Assembly: GCA_963812475.1 (NCBI GenBank)
Contig: CAWEVI010000007.1
Coordinates: forward strand, 2,693-66,692
Length of the DNA stretch: 64,000 nucleotides
Source: an uncultured Alphaproteobacteria bacterium
GTDB lineage: Bacteria; Pseudomonadota; Alphaproteobacteria; Acetobacterales; Acetobacteraceae
Reading direction: 5' to 3'
In this document: piece after piece, positions 4,171 to 62,494 of the stretch
How the letters are laid out: every line of letters begins with the position of its first letter
How positions within the stretch are numbered: position 1 is the stretch's first letter
Made by a program: the position numbers and the translations under genes
The notes under the pieces: generated by a model
Seen by the model: only the letters and a program-made list of their open reading frames with translations
Told to the model about the DNA's origin: nothing
The model's database searches: none

Positions 4171-5380
4171 TCCCGACACCTTGTCCACGCCGATCGAGGT
4201 ACGGCTCCCAGCGGAGAAATTCCACGTTTTCGAGGCTCTGGGGCCGCGTCGCGAAGAACAGGACGGCGCGCAGACCGTCGGTATAATAGTGCGCGCCGTG
4301 CAGGGTATCCCGAGGCTGTGTATCGGAGGCCTCGCCGACGCCGGTGACAAAACCGATGCGGGTCAGACCACCTGAATACATCATGTCCTGGACCAACAGA
4401 TTTCTTGCTTCATCCACATCTTCGTCCAGGACGATATCGCTGTTGCCCGGGGACGCGAAGCGCCCGCCGACCGGCCGGCCAGCCTGCACAAGATAAACCG
4501 GTTGGTCCTGGAAGCTGACCGGTGCGAGCCACGCGCGTATCCAGTTGGACGGCGCGCCCGCCTGTGCCTGCTTGTGCAGCACGAAATCAGGCGGGCGGCC
4601 GAAAACCTGTTGAACCATGTCCTCCGCTTGCGCGGAGCGCCGATAGTCACGGCGCACCATCGCGCTCCCGATCGCGGCAATGTCACCGACGAACACGGCA
4701 TTCAGCGGATCAGCGTGCATCGTTCCGCCTGCTTCTGCCGCACAGCACGGCAGCTGCTCGATTGCAACGCGGAGTGCGGCGAGGTCCGTGTAGTTCACGG
4801 CATGCGCACCGGAATATTTGAAGAGCGCCGGGTCGTCGCCGGGGGCATCATCGGGTACAGGTAGGAACAGCGTGAAGGGAATCAGCATCTGCCGGCCGAG
4901 CAGATCGACGTTCAGAAGTCTTGTCCGGCGTTCGGGATTGATGAAGAGGATTCCCGCACGTGTTTCCCCCGCGGCGATCGGATTCTTGAACCCGAGCCTG
5001 TCGAAGTGGTCGTCGATCCGTGCATTCGTGTCGCCGCCAAGCAGCGTGTGCAGCGACCACGCGACTTCGAGCGGCGAGTAGTAGTCAGGGTCGGTGCCGG
5101 AGCGCAGCAGCCACAACCGTCGCGCGGTCCGGTTCTCGACCTCTATCCAGACGGGCTGTACTGCGGTCCTGTCGAGTTCGCCGCCGAGCATGCGCCGCGC
5201 GTCCATGGCGCTGAGCACTGCCGCGTTTATGCGTACGTCGCTCCGCATGTCGGTCACGGCGCGGCGGCGCAGCGCGGCGTCGCTGACGTCCTCGGGAGCC
5301 CGCCAGGTCGCGCAACTGACTATGGCCAGTAGCAAGCAGATCCTGAACGCGTCGAGCAGACGAGGCGGCAACGAATTCAT
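4145..5380 (-). CDS. LssY C-terminal-domain lipoprotein (divergent paralog)
   Basis: Lipobox LLLAIVSC. The N-terminal domain shares VQPVWIEVENR with the upstream paralog. Also shared are the LPCC motif, ADPLNAVFVG and the C-terminal YYTDG motif. Its ATG overlaps the upstream stop (ATGA at 5377-5380). Confidence 0.65.
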   Translation of the reverse strand: MNSLPPRLLDAFRICLLLAIVSCATWRAPEDVSDAALRRRAVTDMRSDVRINAAVLSAMDARRMLGGELDRTAVQPVWIEVENRTARRLWLLRSGTDPDYYSPLEVAWSLHTLLGGDTNARIDDHFDRLGFKNPIAAGETRAGILFINPERRTRLLNVDLLGRQMLIPFTLFLPVPDDAPGDDPALFKYSGAHAVNYTDLAALRVAIEQLPCCAAEAGGTMHADPLNAVFVGDIAAIGSAMVRRDYRRSAQAEDMVQQVFGRPPDFVLHKQAQAGAPSNWIRAWLAPVSFQDQPVYLVQAGRPVGGRFASPGNSDIVLDEDVDEARNLLVQDMMYSGGLTRIGFVTGVGEASDTQPRDTLHGAHYYTDGLRAVLFFATRPQSLENVEFLRWEPYLDRRGQGVGNAGSDAGH

Positions 5381-6678
5381 CGCGCTATTCCCGGAGTCGC
5401 CTCCTTGCGCGTCTCGATCGTCCCCCAGTCGAACAGCTCGATCTCGGTGATCGGCGTTGGTCTGCGGTCAAATACCAGCACGACGCGAAATCCGTCGGTA
5501 TAGTACGGATCGGTGGTGAGGTTCTCGCGTGCAGCGTTCGGCGGTGCTGCGCCGACCCCGTTCACGAGCCCCGACTTCGTGAGGTTTTGCGAATAGACCA
5601 TGTCCTCGCTCAGCGCCGCGCGCGCCGTGTCCAAATCGGGATCGATCTTGTGCGTCGTGAACGTCGGTGAGTGGATGGTGAGACGAGAGCCGATATCCCG
5701 GCTGACCTGGCCCACCCAAACCCGCTTGTCATGGTAGCGGATCGGGCTCAGCCAGAGCCGCAGGTGATTGCGCTGGTGGATGTTGTCACGGGCCTTCTGC
5801 AGCGCGAGGTCCTGGGGACGGCCGAACAGGTAGAGATCACTCACCGGCGCATAGGGATAGCGGTCGCGCGACAGCGCAGCGGTCATCATCCGCCAGATCG
5901 AGCCCGTCCACTTCTCCTCGGTTGGATGCCAACCCCGCCGGACCAAAGCAGGGAAGGCATCCTCGAGGCCGCCAACGATCACCAGATTGATCGGATCGGC
6001 GTTCTTCGTGCCATTTTTGTTGGTCGCACAGCATGGCAGGGCCTCCAGCGCCGCGCGAAAGGCATCGTCATCCGTGTAGTTCACGATCTTCTCGGGCGGA
6101 TAGATCTCGCGCTGGAACGCTTCGCTCACCTTATAGTCACCCCGAAAGCCAGGCACGACCGCGAGGATCGAGAATGTCCGCGCGCGCTCGCTTGCGACAA
6201 AGTCGAGTTGCACGAGCTTCACGCCCTCGTCCAGGTTTGTCAGTACGAACCCCAACGTCGTCGATTCCGGCGGGACGGGGTTGTGGAACGCAAGCTGCCG
6301 GAAGCGCCGGTCGATCGCAGCCCGCTGCTGGCTCGAGCTCTCCGGTGACAGGGCTTCGGCTGCTTCCGATGCGGGAAAGAAATTCGGATCCAGACCCGGC
6401 GACAACAGGAAATAGCCCTGCCGGTCACGGTTCTCGACCTCGATCCACACGGGCTGGATTCCCTGCTTCGCGAGCGCCATGCCGTACACCGCCACGCTCT
6501 CGTCGGCGGACAGCACCGCCGTCGACACCCGCAGCGTGCCGTCGGTTCGCGTCACGGCCCTGCTTTTGTAGTCGGGCTCCGTTGTGGGCTGTGCCGACAT
6601 CACAGGCGCACAGCCACCAAAAGTGCCAGCGACGAGAGCGATTGCGAGCGCCCGCATCGCCATGCGGGTCCATTTCAT
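5377..6678 (-). CDS. LssY C-terminal-domain lipoprotein
   Basis: Signal peptide plus lipobox (LVAGTFGGC). As I recall the LssY_C (PF14067) signature, these match it: ADPINLVIVG, RRGW, PVSDLYLFGRPQDLALQK, RNHLRLW and THKIDPDLDTAR. It starts 28 nt after the maeB stop. Confidence 0.7.
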   Translation of the reverse strand: MKWTRMAMRALAIALVAGTFGGCAPVMSAQPTTEPDYKSRAVTRTDGTLRVSTAVLSADESVAVYGMALAKQGIQPVWIEVENRDRQGYFLLSPGLDPNFFPASEAAEALSPESSSQQRAAIDRRFRQLAFHNPVPPESTTLGFVLTNLDEGVKLVQLDFVASERARTFSILAVVPGFRGDYKVSEAFQREIYPPEKIVNYTDDDAFRAALEALPCCATNKNGTKNADPINLVIVGGLEDAFPALVRRGWHPTEEKWTGSIWRMMTAALSRDRYPYAPVSDLYLFGRPQDLALQKARDNIHQRNHLRLWLSPIRYHDKRVWVGQVSRDIGSRLTIHSPTFTTHKIDPDLDTARAALSEDMVYSQNLTKSGLVNGVGAAPPNAARENLTTDPYYTDGFRVVLVFDRRPTPITEIELFDWGTIETRKEATPGIAR

Positions 6679-9101: not shown

Positions 9102-12100
9102 ATGCCGATGGCCTCAGTCCCCCGATCAGCCGGCGCAACGCCTGCCATGGCGCAATGGTTCGCCGCCAAGGAAGCACACCCGGATGCGCTGGTGTTCTTC
9201 CGCATGGGCGATTTTTACGAGCTGTTCTTCTCGGACGCCGAGGCTGCCGCAGCCGCCCTCGACATCGCGCTGACCCAGAGGGGCGAACATAACGGCAGTC
9301 CGGTGCCGATGTGCGGCGTGCCACAGCATGCGGCCGAGGCCTATCTCGCGCGCCTGATCCGCCGCGGCTTCCGCGTGGCGGTGGCTGAACAGATGGAGGA
9401 CCCCAAGGCGCGCACCAGCAAGGCGCCGATCCGGCGCGAGGTGGTGCGCCTTATCACGCCTGGCACGATCACCGAGGAAGCCCTGCTGGAAGCCGGCCGA
9501 GCCAATTTGTTGCTGGCGCTGGCGCTGGATGGGCGGGTGGGCGTCGGCGCGGCGTGGCTCGATGTTTCCACCGGCCTGTTCGAGACGATGGCGCTTGCCC
9601 AGGCCGATCTTCCCAGCCTGCTCGGCCGGCTTGAACCGGCGGAGATTCTCGCTGCGGCAACCTTGCCTCTTGGCGACTGGGCGGGCAGGCGCGCGCCCGA
9701 TGTCGTGCCATCGCCGCCGTTGGTGGCCCGTCGGCGGCTGGCCGAGGCATTCGGCGTCGCCAGCGTTGACGCGTTCGGCAGCTTCGCCGATGCCGAGGCC
9801 ATCGCTGCGGTTATGGCGGTGGACTATGTCCGTGCCACCCAGGCGGGCACACTGCCGCGCCTGGCGCACCCCGCGCCGCAGGGTGCCGCCGGGCTGCTGT
9901 CGATGGATGCGGCAACGCGCTCCAGTTTGGAAATCCACCGTGCGCGGGACGGCGGAACGTTGCACACGCTGCTCGGCACCGTGCAGCGAACGCTCAGCCC
10001 TGCGGGCGCGCGTATGCTGGCGGGCTGGCTGTCCGCGCCGCTCACCGACACCCCGGCGATTGCGGCACGCCAGGATGCATGGTCCTGGCTGTTGGCCGAG
10101 CACGCCGCCGCCGAGCGGCTGCGGGCTGCTATGCGGTCCGCGCCTGACATCGCTCGCGCTCTGGCACGGCTGTCGGTCAATCGCGGCGGACCGCGCGACC
10201 TCGCTGCGCTGCGCCACGGGCTGGCGGCCGCGCAGGCTGCGGCGATGGCGCTCAGTGCGTCCGGCGCCCACCTGCACCCACACGCACAGCCACCCGCCGC
10301 CACCGCACAGTCATGCGCGCCCAACGCACACACACAGTCACACGCCCCGCACGCACACGCCCCGTACGCACAGTCCCGCGCGCCCAGCGCGGACGCACAG
10401 TCACACGCCCCGCACGCACACGCGCAGTCACACGTCCCGCACTCGAACGTCATGGCCGGGCCTGACCCGGCCATCCCCACGACCGCGAATGCCGCAACAG
10501 ATGGCCGGGTCAAGCCCGGCCATGACGAAGCATGTGGGCCCGGCGATGACGGAGCACGTGGGCCCGGCCACGACGGAGCGGTTGCGCCAGGCCATGACGG
10601 AGCACTTGGGCCAAGGCCCGATGGAGTGCTTGCGGGAGAATTGTCCGTCGCGCTGCCTCCAGCGCTGCGGACCGCGTCCACCGCCCTCCACGTCGATCCG
10701 TCACTGGAGCACCGCCTGGCCGACGCGCTGGCCGACCCGGCGCCGCATCGCCTGGACGACGGCAACGCCATCCGGGCCGGTTTCGACGCCGAACTCGACG
10801 CCGAACGCGCCCTGCGCGACGATAGCCGACGAGTGCTGGCAACGCTGCAACTCGACTACGCGCAGCGCTACGGCGTGGCCAGCCTGAAGATCCGCCACCA
10901 CGCCCAACTCGGCTACGTCATCGAAGCGCCTGCCGCCGTGGTGGAAAAGCTGCGCGAATTTCCCGAACTCACATTGCGCCAGGGCATGGCCAACGGCGCG
11001 CGCTTCACCACACCGGAACTCTCGGACCTCGACCGCCGCATCGCTGAGGCCGGTGAACGTGCCGCGGCACGCGAGCGCGCGGTGTTCGCCCAACTGGTGC
11101 AGGAGGCCCTGGCCCATGCCGATGCGCTCGCCGCCTGCGCCGATGCGCTGGCCTTCCTCGACGCCGTGCAGTCCGCCGCGAAGCTGGCCGAGTCCGGCAC
11201 GTGGTGCCGCCCCCAGGTAACCGATAACGACGAGTTCCTGGTGAAATCCGGCCGCCACCCGGTCGTGGAAGCGGCGCTGGCAGGACACGCGGCCTTCGTG
11301 CCCAATGACTGCGACCTGTCCGCGGAGCAGCGCGTCCTGTTGCTCACCGGCCCCAACATGGCGGGCAAATCGACCTTCCTCCGGCAGAACGCGCTGATCG
11401 TCGTGCTCGCCCAGGCCGGGCTGCCGGTTCCCGCGGAAGCCGCGTCCATCGGCGTGGTGGACCGGCTGTTCTCCCGCGTTGGCGCGGCGGACGATCTGGC
11501 GCGCGGCCGTTCCACCTTCATGGTGGAGATGACCGAGACCGCCGCGATCCTGCATCAGGCCGGCCCGCGCTCGCTGGTCGTGGTGGACGAGATCGGCCGC
11601 GGCACCGCGACGCTGGACGGCCTGGCGATCGCCTGGGCGGTGCTCGAGGCGCTGCACTCGGCAATCCGCTGCCGCACCATCTTCGCCACACACTTCCATG
11701 AGCTTGCCGAACTCGCGGACCGGTTGCCGCGTCTCAAGCCGCACACGATGCGGGTGAAGGAATGGAAGGGTACAGTGGTGTTCCTGCACGAAGTGGCCAC
11801 CGGTGCGGCGGGGCGCTCCTGGGGCGTGCACGTCGCGGAACTGGCCGGGGTGCCGGCGCCGGTGGTGCGACGGGCCGCGTCCTTGCTCGCGTCCTTGGAA
11901 AAGCACGGGGGCCCGCTGGGAGCGGCAGGCTCGCCGCTCACGGCATTGCCGCTCTTCGCCGCCGCGCCTTCCGCGGGGCAGGCAGAAGCCCCGTCTTCAC
12001 CGGATCCCGATCCACTCACCGAGGCGATCGCCGCCCTGGAACCGGATCGGCTCACCCCGCGCGACGCGCTGGACGCATTGTATCGCCTGAAAGCAATGTT

Positions 12101-55996: not shown

Positions 55997-56935
55997 TTAC
56001 CTTTTGATTTCATGCCGGAGGCAGGAGCGGTTGTGCGGTCTCTCGGAATCGTGAGCCTTCGGACGGCACGGTAGACGCATGAGCGGCTGACCGACCCGGA
56101 TCCTGGCACCCTCGCGCACACCTTCGGACAAGGCGAATCCGTCCGGCGTAAAAACGATAATCGTCGATCCGTGTTGGAACCAGCCCATCTCGTCGCCTTT
56201 GCGCAAAGGCACGTCCAAGGGCACGGTTCGTGTGCCGCCGCGGCGGATGTCGAAACCCGCAGCCAAAAAGCTGAGACGGATGCCTGCGACCAATATGGCC
56301 GCGACGGGTACCAGTGTGATGGTATGGCCGGCTTGGGAAAGCCTTAAGCGGATTGGGGCCCGCTCGTTCCTGCAGAACAGCCGTTCGACTCGCTTGAGAG
56401 CGATGGGATTGACGTTCCAGGTATCGCCCGAGATATAGGCGACCGATTCCACACGGCAGTCATGCGGTGCATGGAAGTGGTGATACATTGCCGATGTAAG
56501 CCGAAGTGTCACATAGCGCCCGTTCCGGTACAGGGCGGCGTGGTCGTCGTCACCGAGCAGGTCCTGGATTTGATAGGGAAAGCCCTTGATCTGCAGAACC
56601 TGATCGCCCTGCACCGCTCCCGATGCCCCGACAATCGCATCGCACGGACTGATCAGAAGCTCCGGATCCCCATCGATCGGGCGCGCTCCCTCCTCAAGCC
56701 GACGGACGAAGCAGTCATGCAGGCTGCGAAAGCGAGTTTCGCGCGCGTCGCTCAAATCCAAGTCGGAGAAAAGGCGCCAGACACCGATCGACAGATCGCG
56801 GATAAGCGGATGCTCGAGTTGGCTGAACCAGCCGAAGAAGCGGGTTGCCAATCGCCTTGGAATGCGATTGGTCAGCAGGAAATTGATGTCGTCCTGCCGG
56901 GCGAATTTAGCAATCGCCGACCGTAGCTTTTTCAT
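55997..56935 (-). CDS. Phosphatidylserine decarboxylase family protein (long, pyruvoyl-type)
   Basis: Start at MKKLRSAI (ATG 56935), 312 aa. Motifs are YHHFHAP and the self-cleavage site context WFQHGSTIIVF (G-S-T). Confidence 0.75.
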   Translation of the reverse strand: MKKLRSAIAKFARQDDINFLLTNRIPRRLATRFFGWFSQLEHPLIRDLSIGVWRLFSDLDLSDARETRFRSLHDCFVRRLEEGARPIDGDPELLISPCDAIVGASGAVQGDQVLQIKGFPYQIQDLLGDDDHAALYRNGRYVTLRLTSAMYHHFHAPHDCRVESVAYISGDTWNVNPIALKRVERLFCRNERAPIRLRLSQAGHTITLVPVAAILVAGIRLSFLAAGFDIRRGGTRTVPLDVPLRKGDEMGWFQHGSTIIVFTPDGFALSEGVREGARIRVGQPLMRLPCRPKAHDSERPHNRSCLRHEIKR

Positions 56936-56973
56936 GCTATCGACCTGTTGCCAAAGCAGGGTATGCAACAGCC

Positions 56974-58659
56974 ATGGAACTGACCGGGCTTGCAGCCTAT
57001 GTCGCCGGCGCGGCGGCATCCACCTTGCTGTTCGTCCGTGTGAAGCGACGGATTGACTTGTCGCGGGCAAAGCATCGGTCGCTGACCGGACATTCCCGGC
57101 TGGCGCGGCGGATTGCGTCGCTGATTCCATTTTACGAATACGACAACGGTCGGTTCTTCCGGTCCGACGATCCTCCGGAGGAGGTCGCTGCGCAACGGCG
57201 CGATGGCTTTCTGCGCCTCGCGGCCCTTTACAAGGCCAGATTCGCACGGTCCAGCACGCTGACAGCCACGGTCCAAACGGGACTTTCCGACCTCCAGTTC
57301 ATCACGGCCTATCGCGTTCCCTTTCAGTACAGCCGCATCGTTCGTCAACATCTCGCCGCCGGCTCCATTCTTAAAGCCTCATCCGGCGTCACTGTCACCG
57401 ATCTCGACGGCAATGTCCTGTATGATCTGGCCGGTTCGTATGGTGTAAATCTTCTTGGATATGACTTCTACAAGGAGTGCATCGCCCGCGGCACGGAACG
57501 CGTCCACGACCTCGGGCCCGTCATTGGTTCGTACCATCCCGTCGTCGCCTACAATGTCGAGCGTCTGCGACAGATTTCCGGACTCGACGAAGTTTCCTTC
57601 CATATGTCCGGCACCGAGGCGGTAATGCAGGCTGTCCGACTCGCGCGCTACCACACACGCCGCTCGCATCTGGTGCGTTTCTGCGGCGCCTATCACGGTT
57701 GGTGGAGCGACGTTCAGCCCGGCATCGGCAACCCTTCCTCCGTACCCGAGACCTACACGCTGGCAGAGATGTCCGAGCAAACGCTTCATGTGCTTCGCAC
57801 CCGTCGGAATATCGCGTGCGTCCTGGTCAATCCGTATCAGGCGCTCCATCCGAATGCAGGTCCTCCGGCCGATTCGTCGCTGGTCGACAGCAGCAGGACG
57901 GCACAGTTCGACCGGCAGGCCTACACGCTTTGGCTGCAACAGCTTCGCACCGTGTGTACCGAGCGCCGAATTGCCTTGATCTTTGACGAGATCTTTGTCG
58001 GGTTCCGCCTGGCCCCCGGCGGCGCGCAGGAGTATTTCGGCGTCAATCCGGACCTCGTCACCTACGGAAAGACGCTCGGAGGGGGGCTTCCTGTCGGCGT
58101 GCTGTGCGGACGCCACGACTGGATGAAGCGCTACCGCGATGACCGTCCGGTCGATGTCTGCCTGGCGCGTGGCACGTTCAATGCACATCCCTATGTCATG
58201 GGCGCGATGAACGAGTTCCTCCATCGCCTCGAGACTCCACAGATGATGCGGCTCTATGAGGGCCTGGACGATCTTTGGAACAAGCGGGCCGAACGGCTCA
58301 ACCGACTGCTGGGTGAACAGGATCTTCCAATTCGGGTAGCCAATCTCTCCTCCATCTGGACGGTGTGTTATACGCGTCCGTCCCGCTACAATTGGATGCT
58401 GCAGTATTACCTGCGTGCCGAGGGCCTCGCGCTCAGCTGGGTGGGCACCGGACGCCTCATTTTCAGCCTGAATTACAGCGATGCGGATTTCGACGCGGTG
58501 ACGGACCGCTTTCTGGCAGCGGCCAGGGCCATGGAGCAGGACGGCTGGTGGTGGACAAATGTCACCACCACGAACAAGTCGATCAGGCGCCAGATCCTGC
58601 GCGAGGTGTTGGCCGACTACAGGTCGCGCATTGGCGGTCGGTTACGCGCGACGGGATGA
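56974..58659 (+). CDS. Membrane-anchored class-III aminotransferase fold protein (glutamate-1-semialdehyde aminomutase-like)
   Basis: 561 aa with an N-terminal TM helix (LAAYVAGAAASTLLFV). Motifs are FHMSGTEAVMQAVRLAR and FDEIFVGFR, with the PLP-lysine context TYGKTLGGGLPVG. Confidence 0.7.
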   Translation: MELTGLAAYVAGAAASTLLFVRVKRRIDLSRAKHRSLTGHSRLARRIASLIPFYEYDNGRFFRSDDPPEEVAAQRRDGFLRLAALYKARFARSSTLTATVQTGLSDLQFITAYRVPFQYSRIVRQHLAAGSILKASSGVTVTDLDGNVLYDLAGSYGVNLLGYDFYKECIARGTERVHDLGPVIGSYHPVVAYNVERLRQISGLDEVSFHMSGTEAVMQAVRLARYHTRRSHLVRFCGAYHGWWSDVQPGIGNPSSVPETYTLAEMSEQTLHVLRTRRNIACVLVNPYQALHPNAGPPADSSLVDSSRTAQFDRQAYTLWLQQLRTVCTERRIALIFDEIFVGFRLAPGGAQEYFGVNPDLVTYGKTLGGGLPVGVLCGRHDWMKRYRDDRPVDVCLARGTFNAHPYVMGAMNEFLHRLETPQMMRLYEGLDDLWNKRAERLNRLLGEQDLPIRVANLSSIWTVCYTRPSRYNWMLQYYLRAEGLALSWVGTGRLIFSLNYSDADFDAVTDRFLAAARAMEQDGWWWTNVTTTNKSIRRQILREVLADYRSRIGGRLRATG

Positions 58660-58684
58660 CCGCCAAGCCTGCCGATTGGCCCGA

Positions 58685-59290
58685 TCACGCCTCCTCGGTC
58701 GCAAAATCGAACAGCTCGCCGCGCAGGAGGTAGCCAGGCGCGCGATAGTATAGCTTCATGTCGTGGAACGGATCGGTGAGGATCTTGGCCGCCCAGACCA
58801 GCCCGGTCTGCACATCCTTGATCCTGAAGAGATGAACTGTCCGAAACAGCAATCCGAAGACGCCGATTGCGAGCCACAGATAGCCGACATGTCGCACGAA
58901 TTCGCTCCATGATTTGTGCGGCTGAACCGTGTGCAGCAGCGTGGGGTCCACGAACAGGACCAGCGGTGACAACGCCCAGATCGTCATGAGAACGATCTTG
59001 CGCCGCAGATTGTAGCCGACCTTGACGGCCTCCTTGTACTCGTGGGTCGCCTGATTGACGGTGTCATAGCACCGGGGCTCAAAAAAGAAGTGCCCGGCCT
59101 GCCTGCTCGTCATCGACACCAGCCATCCTGTCAGGGCCGCCACGGCCGGATCCTTGAACACCAGCACATAGGAAAGAACGAAACTCATTGCGCTGAGCAG
59201 GTGGAGTGACTGGTTTATGCGGCTGTGATGATAATAGCGATGATCATCCCACCGCTGAACTCTCAGTACTTCGCGAAAGCTGCTCATCAC
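58685..59290 (-). CDS. Mpo1-like / DUF962 family membrane protein
   Basis: 201 aa. HHSRINQSLHLLS (H-x3-N-x2-LH) and QAGHFFFE (GH-x3-E) match the DUF962 metal-site motifs as I recall them. Confidence 0.55.
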   Translation of the reverse strand: MMSSFREVLRVQRWDDHRYYHHSRINQSLHLLSAMSFVLSYVLVFKDPAVAALTGWLVSMTSRQAGHFFFEPRCYDTVNQATHEYKEAVKVGYNLRRKIVLMTIWALSPLVLFVDPTLLHTVQPHKSWSEFVRHVGYLWLAIGVFGLLFRTVHLFRIKDVQTGLVWAAKILTDPFHDMKLYYRAPGYLLRGELFDFATEEA

Positions 59291-59402
59291 AATCCTCTCT
59301 TAGCTGGCAGGGTGAAACCGTCGGGCACGATTGGTGCGGCATGGAGTGGAGCGCTTCTGGCACTGGATGCGGGCTCATGCAGCGGCGGTCCTGCTGCGCT
59401 GC

Positions 59403-60125
59403 TTATCCTGCCGCCAACGCGCCCACGGATCCGACGTTGCGATCGGGAGCATTTACCGTCCATGCATTGCTCACCCTCCTGTCATCCGGCAACTTGGTAA
59501 ACCGGATCAACGAAAAATGACCGAACGGCGGTATGGGACTTCGCTCGACGAGGTGAACTGCCGGCAGACCTGCCGCCCAGCGAAGATAGCGTCCCCACGG
59601 AAACTCGGTTCGCCAACCCAGTCGCCTGGTCAACGGCATCAGGGACCTCTCCAGTGCGCCGCGCAGTCCTGCTTCGGCGCTTATGCGACTGGTGATCACA
59701 ATCTCGCCGCCCGGACGCACCACGCGAGCGAACTCATCGAGCGCCTTTTCCGGCTGCGGCACCGCGGTTACCACGTATTGCGCCACGACAACGTCAAAGG
59801 ACTCATCCGGGAAAGTCAGGTTCTCCGCATCCATGACAGCAAGGCCCTCGACGTGGTCGAGGCGCAGTCTTGCTACGCGATCCCGCGCCTTGCGCAGCAT
59901 CGGGGCCGAGATATCGACGCCGTATATGGAGTTGCCTCGCGTGTACCCGGGAAGCGACAGGCCGGTGCCGACGCCAACTTCAAGGATGCGACCCCCGATG
60001 CTTTCCGCTGCATCGATCGCCGCGCGGCGGCCGGCGCAGAATACTCGTCCGAATATTAGATCATAAACCGGCGCCCACCGGCCATACGCCTGGACAACCA
60101 TGTCTGTTTCGATTTCTGACGTCAT
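59403..60125 (-). CDS. Class I SAM-dependent methyltransferase resembling Rhodobacter-type phospholipid N-methyltransferase (PmtA)
   Basis: Start at MTSEIETD (ATG 60125). Motifs are YGRWAPVYDLIFG, ILEVGVGTGLSL and VRPGGEIVI. Confidence 0.6.
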   Translation of the reverse strand: MTSEIETDMVVQAYGRWAPVYDLIFGRVFCAGRRAAIDAAESIGGRILEVGVGTGLSLPGYTRGNSIYGVDISAPMLRKARDRVARLRLDHVEGLAVMDAENLTFPDESFDVVVAQYVVTAVPQPEKALDEFARVVRPGGEIVITSRISAEAGLRGALERSLMPLTRRLGWRTEFPWGRYLRWAAGLPAVHLVERSPIPPFGHFSLIRFTKLPDDRRVSNAWTVNAPDRNVGSVGALAAG

Positions 60126-60319
60126 CGCCTGTCCGGATGCCGTGCGCACGCACGCGCCAAATCGGCACGCTGTCATTATGTCGCACCGATCAGGGTTGCA
60201 CGACACGTGATGGTTTGATGAATTTGCGCATGCGCGTTGATCGTTCCGGCCCCGGTCGACGAGGACCGCGAGTTGCCTAACGCCGCCAACAGGCTAGTTT
60301 GACCACCTCCACATAGCAG

Positions 60320-61303
60320 GTGTTCGCATGGATTATACCACGCTCGGCAGGACCGGGCTTCCTCGTCAGCGTTGCCGGCCTCGGCTGCGGCGGGTTCAGC
60401 CGGCTGGGGTTGAACACCGGCGGCACCGAGGCCAGCGCCATCGCGATCATTCACGCGGCGCTCGATCTCGGGGTGAACCTGCTCGACACGGCGGCGCCGT
60501 ATGCGACCGAGGGCGTGGTCGGCAAGGCGCTGAAGGGCGTGCCGCGCGACAAGGTGGTGATCGCCACAAAGTCATCGGTGTTGCGCGGTGGCGAGCGCTA
60601 CACGCCGGAGCGTGTGGTGGCCAGCCTGGACAACTCGCTGCGCGAGCTTGGCGTCGATTGCATCGACGTGTTCCAGCTGCATGCGGTGCCGCCGTCTGGC
60701 TACGACTACGTGCGCGAGACGATCGCCCCCGCCCTGCTGCGCGAGAAGGAGCGCGGCAAATTCCGCTTTCTCGGCATCACCGAGACATCACCGAACGACC
60801 TTGAGCACGAAATGCTGCAGCGTGCGGTGGCCGACGGCGTGTGGGACGTGGTGATGGTCGCGTTCCATCTCATGAGCCAGAACACACGGGAGAAAGTGTT
60901 CCCGGCGACACTGAAACACCGTGTCGGCACGTTGCTGATGTTCGCGGTGCGCAGCATCTTCGCCAGCACCGAGCGCGTCGCGGCGGCGATGAAGGAGCTG
61001 GCAGCCGCCGGTCAGGTGCCGCAGTGGCTCGCCGACACGCCCGACCCGCTCGGCTTCCTGATCCATCCCGGCGGCGCAAGCAGCCTGACCGACGCGGCCT
61101 ACCGCTACGTGCGCCATGAGCCGGGCGTCGATGTGGTGCTGTTCGGCACCGGCGATCAGGCGCATCTTCGCTCAAACATAGCATCGATCCTGAAGCCGCC
61201 GCTGCCGGAAGCAGACCGTAGCAGGCTCAAGGAGCTGTTCAGTCATCTCAGGGGCGTCGGCCTCGTCTTGCCACCGCGTGCCCGCGCTGCCGCCGCAAAC
61301 TAA
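60320..61303 (+). CDS. Aldo/keto reductase with a frame problem at the N-terminus
   Basis: The main frame has LVSVAGLGCGGFSRLG, LLDTAAPY and IDVFQLH. The canonical N-terminus MDYTTLGRTGL is encoded from ATG 60328 in a different frame. The only in-frame start is GTG 60320. Confidence 0.7.
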   Translation: MFAWIIPRSAGPGFLVSVAGLGCGGFSRLGLNTGGTEASAIAIIHAALDLGVNLLDTAAPYATEGVVGKALKGVPRDKVVIATKSSVLRGGERYTPERVVASLDNSLRELGVDCIDVFQLHAVPPSGYDYVRETIAPALLREKERGKFRFLGITETSPNDLEHEMLQRAVADGVWDVVMVAFHLMSQNTREKVFPATLKHRVGTLLMFAVRSIFASTERVAAAMKELAAAGQVPQWLADTPDPLGFLIHPGGASSLTDAAYRYVRHEPGVDVVLFGTGDQAHLRSNIASILKPPLPEADRSRLKELFSHLRGVGLVLPPRARAAAAN

Positions 61304-61315
61304 CGGAGCCGCATC

Positions 61316-62494
61316 ATGAAACTCGCGAAGATCGAAGACCTGCACTGCGACGCAGGCTGGCGCACCTTTTCGTTCCTCAAACTCACCACCGATGACGGGC
61401 TGGTCGGCTGGTCGGAATACACCGAGGCCGACGGCAGTCGCGGCCTGACCGGCGTGATCTACGGCCTGGCCGACCCGCTGATCGGGCAGGATCCGCGTCC
61501 GGTGCAGCAGATCGCCTCCACGCTCTGGGTGCGGCAGGTGCAGGCGCCGGGCGGCATCAATTCACGCGCCATCGCGGCAATCGAGAACGCGCTGCTGGAC
61601 ATCAAGGGCAAAGCCCTCGGCGTGCCGGTGTACGAACTGTTCGGCGGCCCGGTGCGCGAGCGCATCCCGGTCTATTGGTCGCATTGCGGCTCCTACCGCG
61701 TGCGCAACCACGAGCTTGTCGGCGTGCCGCCGCTGCGCAACTACGACGATATCGCCGCACTCGGCGCCGAGGTGAAGCGGCGCGGCTTCAAGGCGCTGAA
61801 GACCAATATTCTTCCCTTTGACGGCGAGAAACTGACCAATTTCGGCCCCGGTTTCGGCCGCTCGCCGGGCTATCCGGAGCTGAACGTCGATCGCAAGACG
61901 CTGCAATCGGTGCGCGATCTGCTCGGTGCATTCCGCGCCGGCACCGGTCCCGACATGGGGCTGCATCTCGACGTGAACTACCATTTCAAGACCGAGGGCT
62001 ACCTGCAGATCGCCAAGGCGGTCGCGCCGTTCGACATGACCTGGCTGGAGATCGACACGTGGGATCCGCAATCGCTCGCGCTGATCCGCCGCGCCGCGCC
62101 ATGTCCGATCGCATCGCTGGAGTCGGTGTGCGGGCGGCGTGCGTTCCGACCGTTCTTCGACGCCTACGCCACCGACGTCGCGATCATCGACGTGATCTGG
62201 AACGGTTTCCTGGAGTCGATCAAGATAGCCTCGATGGCCGAGGCGTACGAAGTAAACTGCGCTCCGCACAACTACTACGGCCATCTGTGCTCGGCGATCA
62301 GCGCGCATTTCTGTGCGGTGGTGCCGAATTTCCGGGTCATGGAAATCGACATCGACAGCGTCGCCTGGCGCGACGAGTTATTCATCAATGCGCCGGCGAT
62401 CGAGAACGGCGAGCTGATCATCCCAAAGGGTCCCGGCTGGGGCGTCGAAGTGAACGAAACCGCCGTGCGCGCGCATCCCCCTCGGATGCGGTAG
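61316..62494 (+). CDS. Enolase-superfamily enzyme (mandelate racemase / sugar-acid dehydratase-like)
   Basis: 392 aa with AIAAIENALLDIKGKALGVPVYELFGG, LHLDVNY, WLEID and CAPHN. Confidence 0.8.
   Translation: MKLAKIEDLHCDAGWRTFSFLKLTTDDGLVGWSEYTEADGSRGLTGVIYGLADPLIGQDPRPVQQIASTLWVRQVQAPGGINSRAIAAIENALLDIKGKALGVPVYELFGGPVRERIPVYWSHCGSYRVRNHELVGVPPLRNYDDIAALGAEVKRRGFKALKTNILPFDGEKLTNFGPGFGRSPGYPELNVDRKTLQSVRDLLGAFRAGTGPDMGLHLDVNYHFKTEGYLQIAKAVAPFDMTWLEIDTWDPQSLALIRRAAPCPIASLESVCGRRAFRPFFDAYATDVAIIDVIWNGFLESIKIASMAEAYEVNCAPHNYYGHLCSAISAHFCAVVPNFRVMEIDIDSVAWRDELFINAPAIENGELIIPKGPGWGVEVNETAVRAHPPRMR

Follow-up and report, generated by a model that had tools for sequence, protein, structure and literature searches.

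A methyltransferase-bearing version of a widely conserved bacterial gene module, probably modifying membrane-lipid head groups, in an uncultured member of the Acetobacteraceae

The window analysed here, a stretch of 64,000 nucleotides from an uncultured member of the Acetobacteraceae, contains adjacent genes for a phosphatidylserine decarboxylase (Psd) paralogue, a class-III aminotransferase, an Mpo1/DUF962-like protein and a PmtA-like methyltransferase (55997–60125), and the question is whether these are housekeeping genes lying side by side or an accessory pathway for a modified or methylated amino-lipid head group, as an earlier note on this DNA had supposed. All four open reading frames described there were verified at the same positions. 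The Psd gene (minus strand) and the aminotransferase gene (plus strand) are divergent, with a 38 nt intergenic region (56936–56973) between their starts, and the DUF962-like and methyltransferase genes, again on the minus strand, run towards the aminotransferase gene in convergent orientation; these orientations rule out a single operon for the four genes. The GC content is 60.3% over the cluster versus 65.1% in the rest of the window, and the GC3 of the cluster genes is 68–76% versus 84–85% in the flanking genes. The lower GC content reported earlier thus holds, but the figure of about 53–58% does not, as the individual genes range from 57 to 61.5%.

The four predicted proteins

The first gene (55997–56935, minus strand) encodes a 312 aa long-form enzyme of the pyruvoyl phosphatidylserine decarboxylase family, which matches PF02666 (E 7.5e-54, 182.9 bits versus a cut-off of 22) and TIGR00163 (164 bits versus 111.75), shows about 35% similarity to E. 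coli PSD (PDB 6L06/7CNW), and aligns with the latter along its membrane-binding N-terminus. In E. coli PSD, D90, H144 and S254 form the Asp/His/Ser triad and Tyr137 contacts the phosphate, the latter position being Tyr in 85% and Arg in 15% of PSDs (PMC7952604). D99, H152 and G256-S257-T258 of the paralogue align with E. coli D90, H144 and G253-S254, while R145 occupies the Tyr137 position, and all are invariant among 27 family members, confirming the intact G-S-T cleavage site noticed earlier. With E. coli Psd the paralogue has in common its long-form fold, the cleavage site, the D-H-S triad of maturation and, where E. coli has Tyr137, an anion-binding residue. It differs in that this residue is an invariant Arg, in that every carrier genome checked has a housekeeping psd as well, and in its strict linkage to the aminotransferase and the Mpo1-like protein. 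R145 would suit a phosphate or some other anionic group.

The 561 aa aminotransferase (56974–58659, plus strand) is a PF00202 member (E 1.2e-31, 110.3 bits versus a cut-off of 30.5), in which the PLP lysine K366 (in TYGKTLGGG) and D338, the Asp contacting the pyridine nitrogen, are invariant in 33 sequences. The AlphaFold2 model (pLDDT 84) has an N-terminal helix (residues 2–32), then additional helices that reach to about residue 126, and then the catalytic core. The best solved relative both by sequence (E 1e-43) and by fold (E 4e-30, TM 0.82) is the aminotransferase (AMT) domain of the mycosubtilin synthase MycA (6KFM), followed by the glutamate-1-semialdehyde (GSA) aminomutase HemL and the beta-transaminases, and C-6' sugar aminotransferases are also class-III relatives; MycA AMT and the beta-transaminases aminate lipid-tethered or beta-keto substrates. 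While the class-III PLP fold with its Lys and Asp is shared with MycA AMT, the cluster enzyme stands alone, with no carrier protein or synthase nearby, and unlike MycA AMT, HemL and the beta-transaminases it adds a TM helix at its N-terminus and about 100 aa of further helices, an extension absent from the solved relatives. Identity with HemL was rejected, the score against TIGR00713 being 151.9 bits versus a cut-off of 527.3, so that the enzyme is not a HemL equivalog. Of the earlier description as a GSA-aminomutase-like enzyme, the fold, the PLP lysine, the TM helix and the extra domain stand, but not GSA aminomutase as the closest relative. Homologues of the aminotransferase are automatically annotated as glutamate-1-semialdehyde 2,1-aminomutase.

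The third gene (58685–59290, minus strand) encodes a His-rich polytopic membrane protein of 201 aa. Yeast Mpo1 is an Fe(II)-dependent 2-hydroxy fatty acid dioxygenase, and its reaction is an oxidative decarboxylation rather than a conversion of 2-hydroxy to 2-oxo. The cluster protein (P0003) resembles this small polytopic membrane protein weakly but systematically over its His-rich N-terminal half, while differing in its gene context, in forming a compact bacterial clade (730 representatives at 50% identity), and in its PF06127 score of 17.8 bits, below the gathering score of 24. PF06127 was matched by 33/35 family members at E ≤ 0.01 (best 4.8e-05), and is found on 12–16% of the members in the Atlas clusters of this protein. 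The match behind the DUF962 membership claimed earlier is weak, but the His/Asn/His and GH-x3-E motifs are real: H17/H21, N26, H30 and G66-H67-x3-E71 are invariant in 35 sequences, within the blocks QRWDDHRxYH, N26, H30, RQxGHxxFE and H83. Such an invariant His/Glu/Asp pattern is as expected of an enzyme rather than a scaffold, and these residues would fit a putative metal site. The AlphaFold2 model is all-helical (pLDDT 87), and a fold comparison found no solved structure resembling it (best Z 4.2).

The fourth gene (59403–60125, minus strand; furthest upstream possible start at 60206) encodes a 240 aa class-I SAM-dependent methyltransferase, a member of the generic Methyltransf_11 family (E 1.2e-23). 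Its best NCBIfam match is NF045882 (PmtA, Legionella type), aligned over positions 6–202 of 207 at 132.7 bits. This full-length match is a likeness to PmtA and bears out the Pmt-like label given earlier, but the best profile is the Legionella type, and the score falls far below the equivalog cut-off of 390, so that PmtA equivalog status is not reached; the genome also holds a second paralogue. The cluster-type methyltransferase further differs from PmtA (Rhodobacter/Legionella type), the Bradyrhizobium PmtX paralogues and OlsG in that some lineages have it fused to the Mpo1-like protein: such natural fusions occur in clusters of 53, 45 and 21 sequences from metagenomic lineages, one of which was verified, and the cluster enzyme shares 58% identity with the methyltransferase half of such a fusion. 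Judged by their sequences, all cluster enzymes retain intact catalytic residues.

Conservation and genomic setting

The Psd, aminotransferase and Mpo1-like genes were adjacent in 20/20 loci from different families and classes, and a census of 101 loci, including Polyangia, Chthoniobacterales, Holophagales and Dormiibacterota, contained the aminotransferase in 99, the Mpo1-like gene in 93 and the Psd in at least 82. Seen in about 100 loci whose flanking genes differ, the arrangement lies far beyond chance, and the pairing of Psd with the TM-anchored aminotransferase pointed out earlier is kept across classes and phyla. In the loci examined the Psd was always found with the aminotransferase and Mpo1-like genes and never apart from them, and the Psd and aminotransferase starts share a divergent control region of 30–40 nt; these three genes are a strictly co-inherited core. 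The methyltransferase, present in 51/101 census loci and, on the aminotransferase tree, in almost every alphaproteobacterial clade, is a lineage-specific addition to this core, and in three gammaproteobacterial loci its place is filled by a lipid N-methyltransferase of the OlsG/Agrobacterium-PmtA type. No published description of the module was found in the literature, and the cluster is a methyltransferase-bearing version of a widely conserved, uncharacterised bacterial module.

Within its own genome the cluster is accessory and its aminotransferase is not hemL, since the housekeeping psd-pssA pair, a second Pmt, an ALA synthase and a plcP-GT4 pair all lie elsewhere. Another contig carries a second, short psd immediately 5' of a pssA-like gene, so the cluster Psd is not the sole psd, and a second psd was found in 5/5 complete carrier genomes. 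The second Pmt is a paralogue 44% identical to the cluster methyltransferase. A profile search of the genome found no gene reaching the hemL cut-off of 527.3, and the ALA synthase scored 564.8 bits. The accessory pathway supposed in the earlier note is thus supported by the second psd beside pssA, by the conserved neighbours and by the rejection of hemL, neither of the refuting outcomes named in that note having been observed. The module was found in 10/150 sampled genera of the same family and was absent from the genome sampled from its genus; this patchiness and the lower GC3 both speak for accessory status, and it was probably acquired horizontally.

In relatives the module keeps the company of lipid-remodelling genes, with GT4 nearby in 61 census loci, MprF-TM-like genes in 19, PlcP-like Metallophos in 13, UDP-glucose dehydrogenase (Ugd) in four, GT21 in three and an alkaline phosphatase gene in locus L160. 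Using the Pho-box consensus CTGTCAT-N4-CTGTCAT, a motif with up to three mismatches was present in 23.5% of aminotransferase-start windows versus 3.8% of other gene starts, with a single mismatch in Bradyrhizobium loci, and in relatives it is placed in the divergent region between Psd and aminotransferase. This setting resembles the PlcP-Agt (and Pgt/BtaAB) remodelling of Sinorhizobium, Agrobacterium, SAR11 and others, as does the plcP-GT4 pair in the genome analysed here, although the described pathways contain none of the three core enzymes. In the window, however, the module is detached from plcP-GT4, which is on another contig, and no Pho box was recognisable near the cluster, the best match (5–6/14 mismatches) being background with a consensus that may not be that of the host's family. 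With neither Pho box nor adjacent GT4 or PlcP, phosphate control is unsupported here.

Candidate functions of the module

[quoted passage not shown] The fusions of methyltransferase and Mpo1-like protein, together with the recruitment of an OlsG-like enzyme in another clade, support the methylated amino-lipid head group hypothesised earlier. It need not be the only possible route to such a lipid in this genome, as an OlsB-like gene is also present.

Several other explanations were weighed against this reading. That ordinary housekeeping genes (a sole psd, hemL and pmtA) lie together by chance would agree with the automatic annotation of the aminotransferase homologues, but this was rejected as having next to no probability, given the second psd adjoining pssA, the hemL score of 152 versus 527 bits with an ALA synthase present, the Pmt paralogue and the patchy distribution of the module. 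It is also very improbable that the substrate is not a lipid, being either a soluble or secreted amine, as for the PSD-family enzyme PsiD acting on free tryptophan, or a beta-amino fatty acid secondary metabolite undergoing tailoring: PSD-family tryptophan decarboxylases do exist (PDB 8ZIA/8X4Q are weak matches of the Psd paralogue) and the solved protein most like the aminotransferase is a domain of a lipopeptide synthase, but the aminotransferase is TM-anchored, the Mpo1-like protein spans the membrane several times, the Psd alignment extends over the membrane-binding N-terminus, and the neighbourhoods examined contained lipid-remodelling genes and no NRPS or PKS genes.

Two further explanations keep the membrane lipid but change the task. 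Omega-amine deamination is common in class-III enzymes, and in a head-group editing or salvage pathway PS would be converted to PE, which the aminotransferase would deaminate to a phosphatidyl-aldehyde, with the Mpo1-like oxygenase degrading the two-carbon unit to strip nitrogen and ultimately phosphorus. While the PS-type active site of the Psd and the association of the relatives' module with PlcP, phosphatases and Pho boxes are in line with this, whole head groups are already removed by PlcP, and both the fusion and the convergent gain of lipid N-methyltransferases fit the building of an amine head group and not its destruction, which makes salvage improbable. Alternatively, the genes could do two jobs under one regulon, with the Psd and PmtA-like enzymes converting PS via PE to MMPE, DMPE or PC, and the aminotransferase and Mpo1-like protein oxidising and aminating another lipid, for instance the sugar of a glycosyl- or glucuronosyl-diacylglycerol. 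In favour of this, neither the phosphate-binding position nor any catalytic residue has been lost from the Psd, GT4 and UDP-glucose dehydrogenase genes often flank the module in relatives, the C-6' sugar aminotransferases are relatives of the cluster enzyme, and Bradyrhizobium Pmt paralogues methylate PE when expressed in E. coli (PMC8590670). Against this stand the unbroken linkage of the Psd to the aminotransferase and Mpo1-like genes with its short shared control region, the redundancy of a plain PE/PC role in carriers that, where checked, all have a housekeeping psd (and here a second Pmt), and the choice of the Mpo1-like protein and not the Psd as fusion partner of the methyltransferase; we therefore regard such a division of labour as unlikely.

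For the making of an amine-bearing lipid, an order of oxidation, transamination, decarboxylation and N-methylation can be proposed tentatively from the enzyme families. The Mpo1-like protein, a candidate Fe/O2-dependent oxidase, would convert a hydroxylated, carboxyl-bearing lipid head group (hypothetically of the 2-hydroxy-acid type, e.g. glycerate-like) into its oxo form, which the aminotransferase would aminate to a serine-like lipid; the Psd paralogue would then strip the carboxyl group to leave a primary amine (an ethanolamine-like head), which the methyltransferase would N-methylate. The outcome would be a head group like that of PE, MMPE or PC, obtained without the CDP-diacylglycerol/serine route, and its backbone may be phosphorus-free or phosphorus-sparing, as the module of relatives belongs to phosphate-starvation lipid remodelling. 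Against this route, the Mpo1-like assignment is below the Pfam threshold, the chemistry of yeast Mpo1 is oxidative decarboxylation, and the nearest relatives of the aminotransferase give beta-amino and not alpha-amino products, a poor fit to a pyruvoyl decarboxylase as the following enzyme.

The farthest-reaching version of this proposal, an undescribed de novo route in which an ethanolamine- or choline-type head group is built directly on a membrane lipid, is one that we consider doubtful. If true, it would mean that many soil and freshwater bacteria make phosphorus-free or phosphorus-sparing analogues of PE and PC, and that the Mpo1-like protein represents a new class of oxidase, bound to the membrane and acting on lipid head groups.

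Cluster layout and accessory status in the genome

The region at 55997–60125 holds four ORFs, which do not form a single operon. The gene for the phosphatidylserine decarboxylase (Psd) paralogue P0001 (55997–56935, minus strand, 312 aa, long-form; PF02666 E-value 7.5e-54, TIGR00163 164 bits, cut-off 112) is divergent from that for the class-III PLP enzyme P0002, the aminotransferase (56974–58659, plus strand, 561 aa; PF00202 E-value 1.2e-31), with 38 nt between the two. The genes for the Mpo1-like/DUF962 protein P0003 (58685–59290, minus strand, 201 aa; a weak match of 17.8 bits against a gathering score of 24) and the class-I SAM methyltransferase P0004 (59403–60125, minus strand, 240 aa) are co-directional and convergent with the aminotransferase gene. 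The most specific match of the methyltransferase is to the Legionella-type PmtA model, over the whole profile and with 132.7 bits (cut-off 390). All four genes are present with their catalytic residues intact. The cluster has a GC content of 60.3% vs 65.1% in the remaining window, and a GC3 of 68–76% vs 84–85% in the flanking genes. The flanks consist of unrelated sugar-acid genes: on one side two Gfo/Idh/MocA genes and an SDR gene, on the other genes for an AKR, an enolase-superfamily protein and PfkB. Scans for promoters and terminators found no signal exceeding the level expected from shuffled sequence. The SDR adjoining Psd was considered as an orthologue of the SDR found with the module in some gammaproteobacteria and was rejected (31% identity, partial alignment only). 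The AKR and enolase-superfamily genes (60320–62494) form two ORFs with 12 nt between them; an 81%-identical relative (L011, 11450–13612) has one gene call of 720 aa in their place.

An earlier note had read the cluster as an accessory pathway, and this reading holds in the own assembly (6.8 Mb in 72 contigs, with a completeness of 96% and a contamination of 7.9%): a second, short psd lies on contig 43, immediately followed by a pssA-like gene for a CDP-alcohol phosphatidyltransferase, and the aminotransferase scores 152 bits against the hemL equivalog cut-off of 527. No hemL was found at that cut-off in the own genome, which contains an ALA synthase (565 bits). A methyltransferase paralogue, 44% identical, is located on contig 44 and scores 146 bits with the PmtA model, slightly above P0004, and a second psd was present elsewhere in all five complete carrier genomes, from four families. 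With a second psd and a Pmt paralogue elsewhere in the genome, the cluster consists of second copies of two PE/PC-pathway enzymes plus two enzymes without a housekeeping role. The module is thus accessory, and its Psd and methyltransferase are paralogues of housekeeping genes.

With regard to other lipid genes of the own genome, contig 21 carries a PlcP-like phosphoesterase gene followed by a GT4 glycosyltransferase gene and an MFS gene, and an OlsB-like gene is present on contig 13. A search for BtaA gave no match in the own genome, a negative that carries no weight since the control genomes gave none either. The plcP-like/GT4 pair is found twice in the assembly (C21:10138–11995 and C60:85410–86829) with near-identical scores and with one copy reaching a contig end. 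The pair may be truly duplicated, or the assembly, at this level of contamination, may be redundant here.

The three-gene core is strictly co-inherited

The core genes are 55–80% identical across several phyla. Acetobacteraceae metagenome bins contain many aminotransferase homologues of 74–93% identity, automatically annotated as GSA aminomutase; on two of the contigs concerned the four genes keep their order within wholly different flanks. The gene was detected in 10 of 150 sampled genera of the own family, the sampled genome of the own genus being without the module, and phylum-wide in 27 of 400 further genomes at 54–69% identity and full length. In all 20 regions fetched from carrier genomes Psd lies beside the aminotransferase, and the Mpo1-like gene is adjacent in 19, the exception stopping at a contig edge. 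A further 80 loci were obtained by scanning species-representative genomes and belong to Acetobacteraceae, Bradyrhizobium and Xanthobacteraceae, Sphingosinicella, Burkholderiales, Methyloversatilis, Zoogloea and Steroidobacteraceae, as well as Polyangia, Chthoniobacterales, Holophagales and Dormiibacterota. The Polyangia copies are 71–72% similar to the query, equal to the Bradyrhizobium copies, which together with the patchy distribution and the low GC3 points to horizontal spread.

A census with GC3-aware ORF calling covered 101 loci and found the aminotransferase in 99, the Mpo1-like gene in 93 and Psd in at least 82 (the remainder being truncations or mis-calls). The three-gene core is strictly co-inherited. 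The GT4 glycosyltransferase is present in 61 loci and the methyltransferase in at least 51, the Psd and methyltransferase counts being lower bounds since some of these genes were mis-called (clusters c12, c13 and c17). With methyltransferase calls again as a lower bound, GT4 and methyltransferase occur together in 32 of the 101 loci and are both absent from 21. Other recurrent neighbours are MprF-TM-like (19 loci), PlcP-like Metallophos (13), SDR (7), UDP-glucose dehydrogenase (4) and GT21 (3) genes.

Several loci show local peculiarities. A 284-aa protein without Pfam family adjoins the Mpo1-like gene in L137 (9131–9985) and eight other betaproteobacterial or Polyangia loci, often with an alpha/beta hydrolase, and may belong to the module as an additional, lineage-specific component. 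In three loci from small genomes (L052, L057 and L059, family f37) aminotransferase and Psd are separated by the gene for a 938-aa protein ending in a GT4 domain, and all genes are co-directional, as opposed to the divergent layout elsewhere. In L011 the methyltransferase is split into two ORFs of 84 and 125 aa (10442–11101), through disruption of the gene or an error in the sequence, and an IS66-family transposase gene (4939–6399) lies about 1 kb from the module.

Conserved residues, folds and the link of the methyltransferase to the core

Alignment of P0001 to E. coli PSD, read with the structure paper (PMC7952604), places E. coli D90, H144 and G253-S254 at D99, H152 and G256-S257, and the phosphate-binding Tyr137 at R145; all of these P0001 positions are invariant in 27 family members. 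Among PSDs, 85% have Tyr and 15% have Arg at the phosphate-binding position (PMC7952604). The conserved PSD-type residues, including the invariant Arg, suggest that the substrate is probably a serine-type head group beside an anionic group.

In the aminotransferase family K366 and D338 are invariant. The best solved relative of P0002 is the AMT domain of mycosubtilin synthase MycA, both by sequence (E-value 1e-43, vs 3e-32 for the best GSA aminomutase) and by fold (AlphaFold2 model with pLDDT 84; E-value 4e-30, TM 0.82), followed by GSA aminomutases, beta-transaminases and D-phenylglycine aminotransferase. The MycA domain aminates a lipid-tethered beta-keto thioester. The first ~126 residues of P0002 are predicted to form a TM helix and further helices absent from the solved relatives.

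The Mpo1-like family has long invariant blocks (QRWDDHRxYH, N26-Q27, H30, RQxGHxxFE, D76, N79, H83, K86-E87 and TDPxxD), a pattern that would be expected of an enzyme and not of a passive anchor. PF06127 gave weak matches in 33 of 35 family members, and the family comprises 730 representatives at 50% identity among 1.84 billion proteins. Yeast Mpo1 is a 2-hydroxy fatty acid dioxygenase of alpha-oxidation (PMC10398889). The AlphaFold2 model of P0003 is all-helical (pLDDT 87); a fold search found no solved relative above noise (best Z 4.2, ferritin-type bundles), and an Atlas fold search recovered the own family only. One Atlas cluster, with 72 members labelled 'putative Mpo1-like', shares the fold of P0003 (TM 0.92) and is 55% viral (Uroviricota); phages thus appear to encode this small membrane protein as well.

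Loci with the methyltransferase occupy the alphaproteobacterial clades of the aminotransferase tree, typically without GT4 in the Acetobacteraceae clade (the window included) and with both genes present in Bradyrhizobium and Xanthobacteraceae. A search for longer Mpo1-like relatives identified many methyltransferase::Mpo1-like fusions of ~450 aa, with the methyltransferase as the N-terminal part (clusters of 53, 45 and 21 sequences). One such fusion, P0136, was checked and lies in one frame, with residues 17–226 being 58% identical to P0004 and residues 254–455 being 64% identical to P0003; its contig carries genes for an alkaline phosphatase, a PlcP-like protein, a response regulator, GT21, GT4, the fusion, the aminotransferase and Psd. 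The methyltransferase is therefore linked to the core by fusion, and since it is cytoplasmic, the fusion would orient the Mpo1-like protein with its His-rich N-terminus towards the cytoplasm; positive residues after the TM helix of the aminotransferase suggest that its catalytic domain lies there too. An apparent Psd::Mpo1-like fusion (P0155) was rejected as an artefact of a frameshifted contig, and P0151 is a candidate GT4::Mpo1-like fusion. Three gammaproteobacterial loci are without a PmtA-like gene and have a different methyltransferase adjoining Psd, which scores 122 bits with OlsG (ornithine-lipid N-methyltransferase) and 57 bits with Agrobacterium-type PmtA, both below cut-off. The use of two unrelated types of lipid-amine N-methyltransferase at one module argues that the product bears a methylatable lipid amine.

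Proposed pathway, alternatives and phosphate control

We somewhat favour the view that the module produces an amine-bearing membrane lipid and methylates it, a chemistry derived from the enzyme families. In a scheme using each enzyme as typical of its family, the Mpo1-like protein would oxidise a lipid head group of the hydroxy-acid type, the aminotransferase would transaminate the oxidised product to a serine-like lipid, the Psd paralogue would decarboxylate this to a primary amine, and the methyltransferase would N-methylate that amine. This specific order of steps is held with low confidence, and the weak points of the scheme are the sub-threshold Mpo1 membership, the hypothetical starting lipid and the formation of beta-amino products by relatives of the aminotransferase.

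Other explanations were considered alongside amine-lipid synthesis. That these are plain housekeeping genes is refuted by the paralogues elsewhere in the genome. A catabolic route for head-group editing is rather improbable, and a product other than a lipid is very improbable. Finally, it is unlikely that the genes perform two independent jobs within one regulon.

The Psd-aminotransferase intergenic region of the relatives is usually 30–45 nt, often with a Pho-box-like motif, which in Bradyrhizobium is CTGTCATGAATCTGTCAG, with the Psd start codon inside the motif. A Pho box with at most 3 mismatches was found in 23.5% of windows at aminotransferase starts vs 3.8% of windows centred on other gene starts of the same loci, some of which are likely Pho genes themselves. 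The window has no Pho box with at most 3 mismatches, the best near the cluster having 5–6, and its Acetobacteraceae clade likewise has no recognisable box, the alignment of the intergenic regions showing no conserved second half-site; the best match upstream of the own plcP has 4 mismatches. Phosphate control of the window's cluster is thus neither supported nor excluded. In two Acetobacteraceae loci (L067 and L097) a repeat-like insertion of ~150–200 nt interrupts the otherwise 35-nt intergenic region.

Full-text literature searches identified no paper on this gene combination and no described function for the core genes. The Acetobacteraceae version, with core and methyltransferase and without glycosyltransferase, is a compact four-gene unit which suits heterologous expression. 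Membrane-lipid remodelling determines in what way soil, freshwater and plant-associated bacteria deal with a shortage of phosphorus. If the module does make a new amine-bearing or betaine-like lipid, this would introduce a lipid class and a biosynthetic logic that are new to bacterial membranes, would provide a first function for bacterial Mpo1/DUF962 proteins, and, going by general knowledge, might explain some of the "unidentified aminolipids" of taxonomic descriptions.
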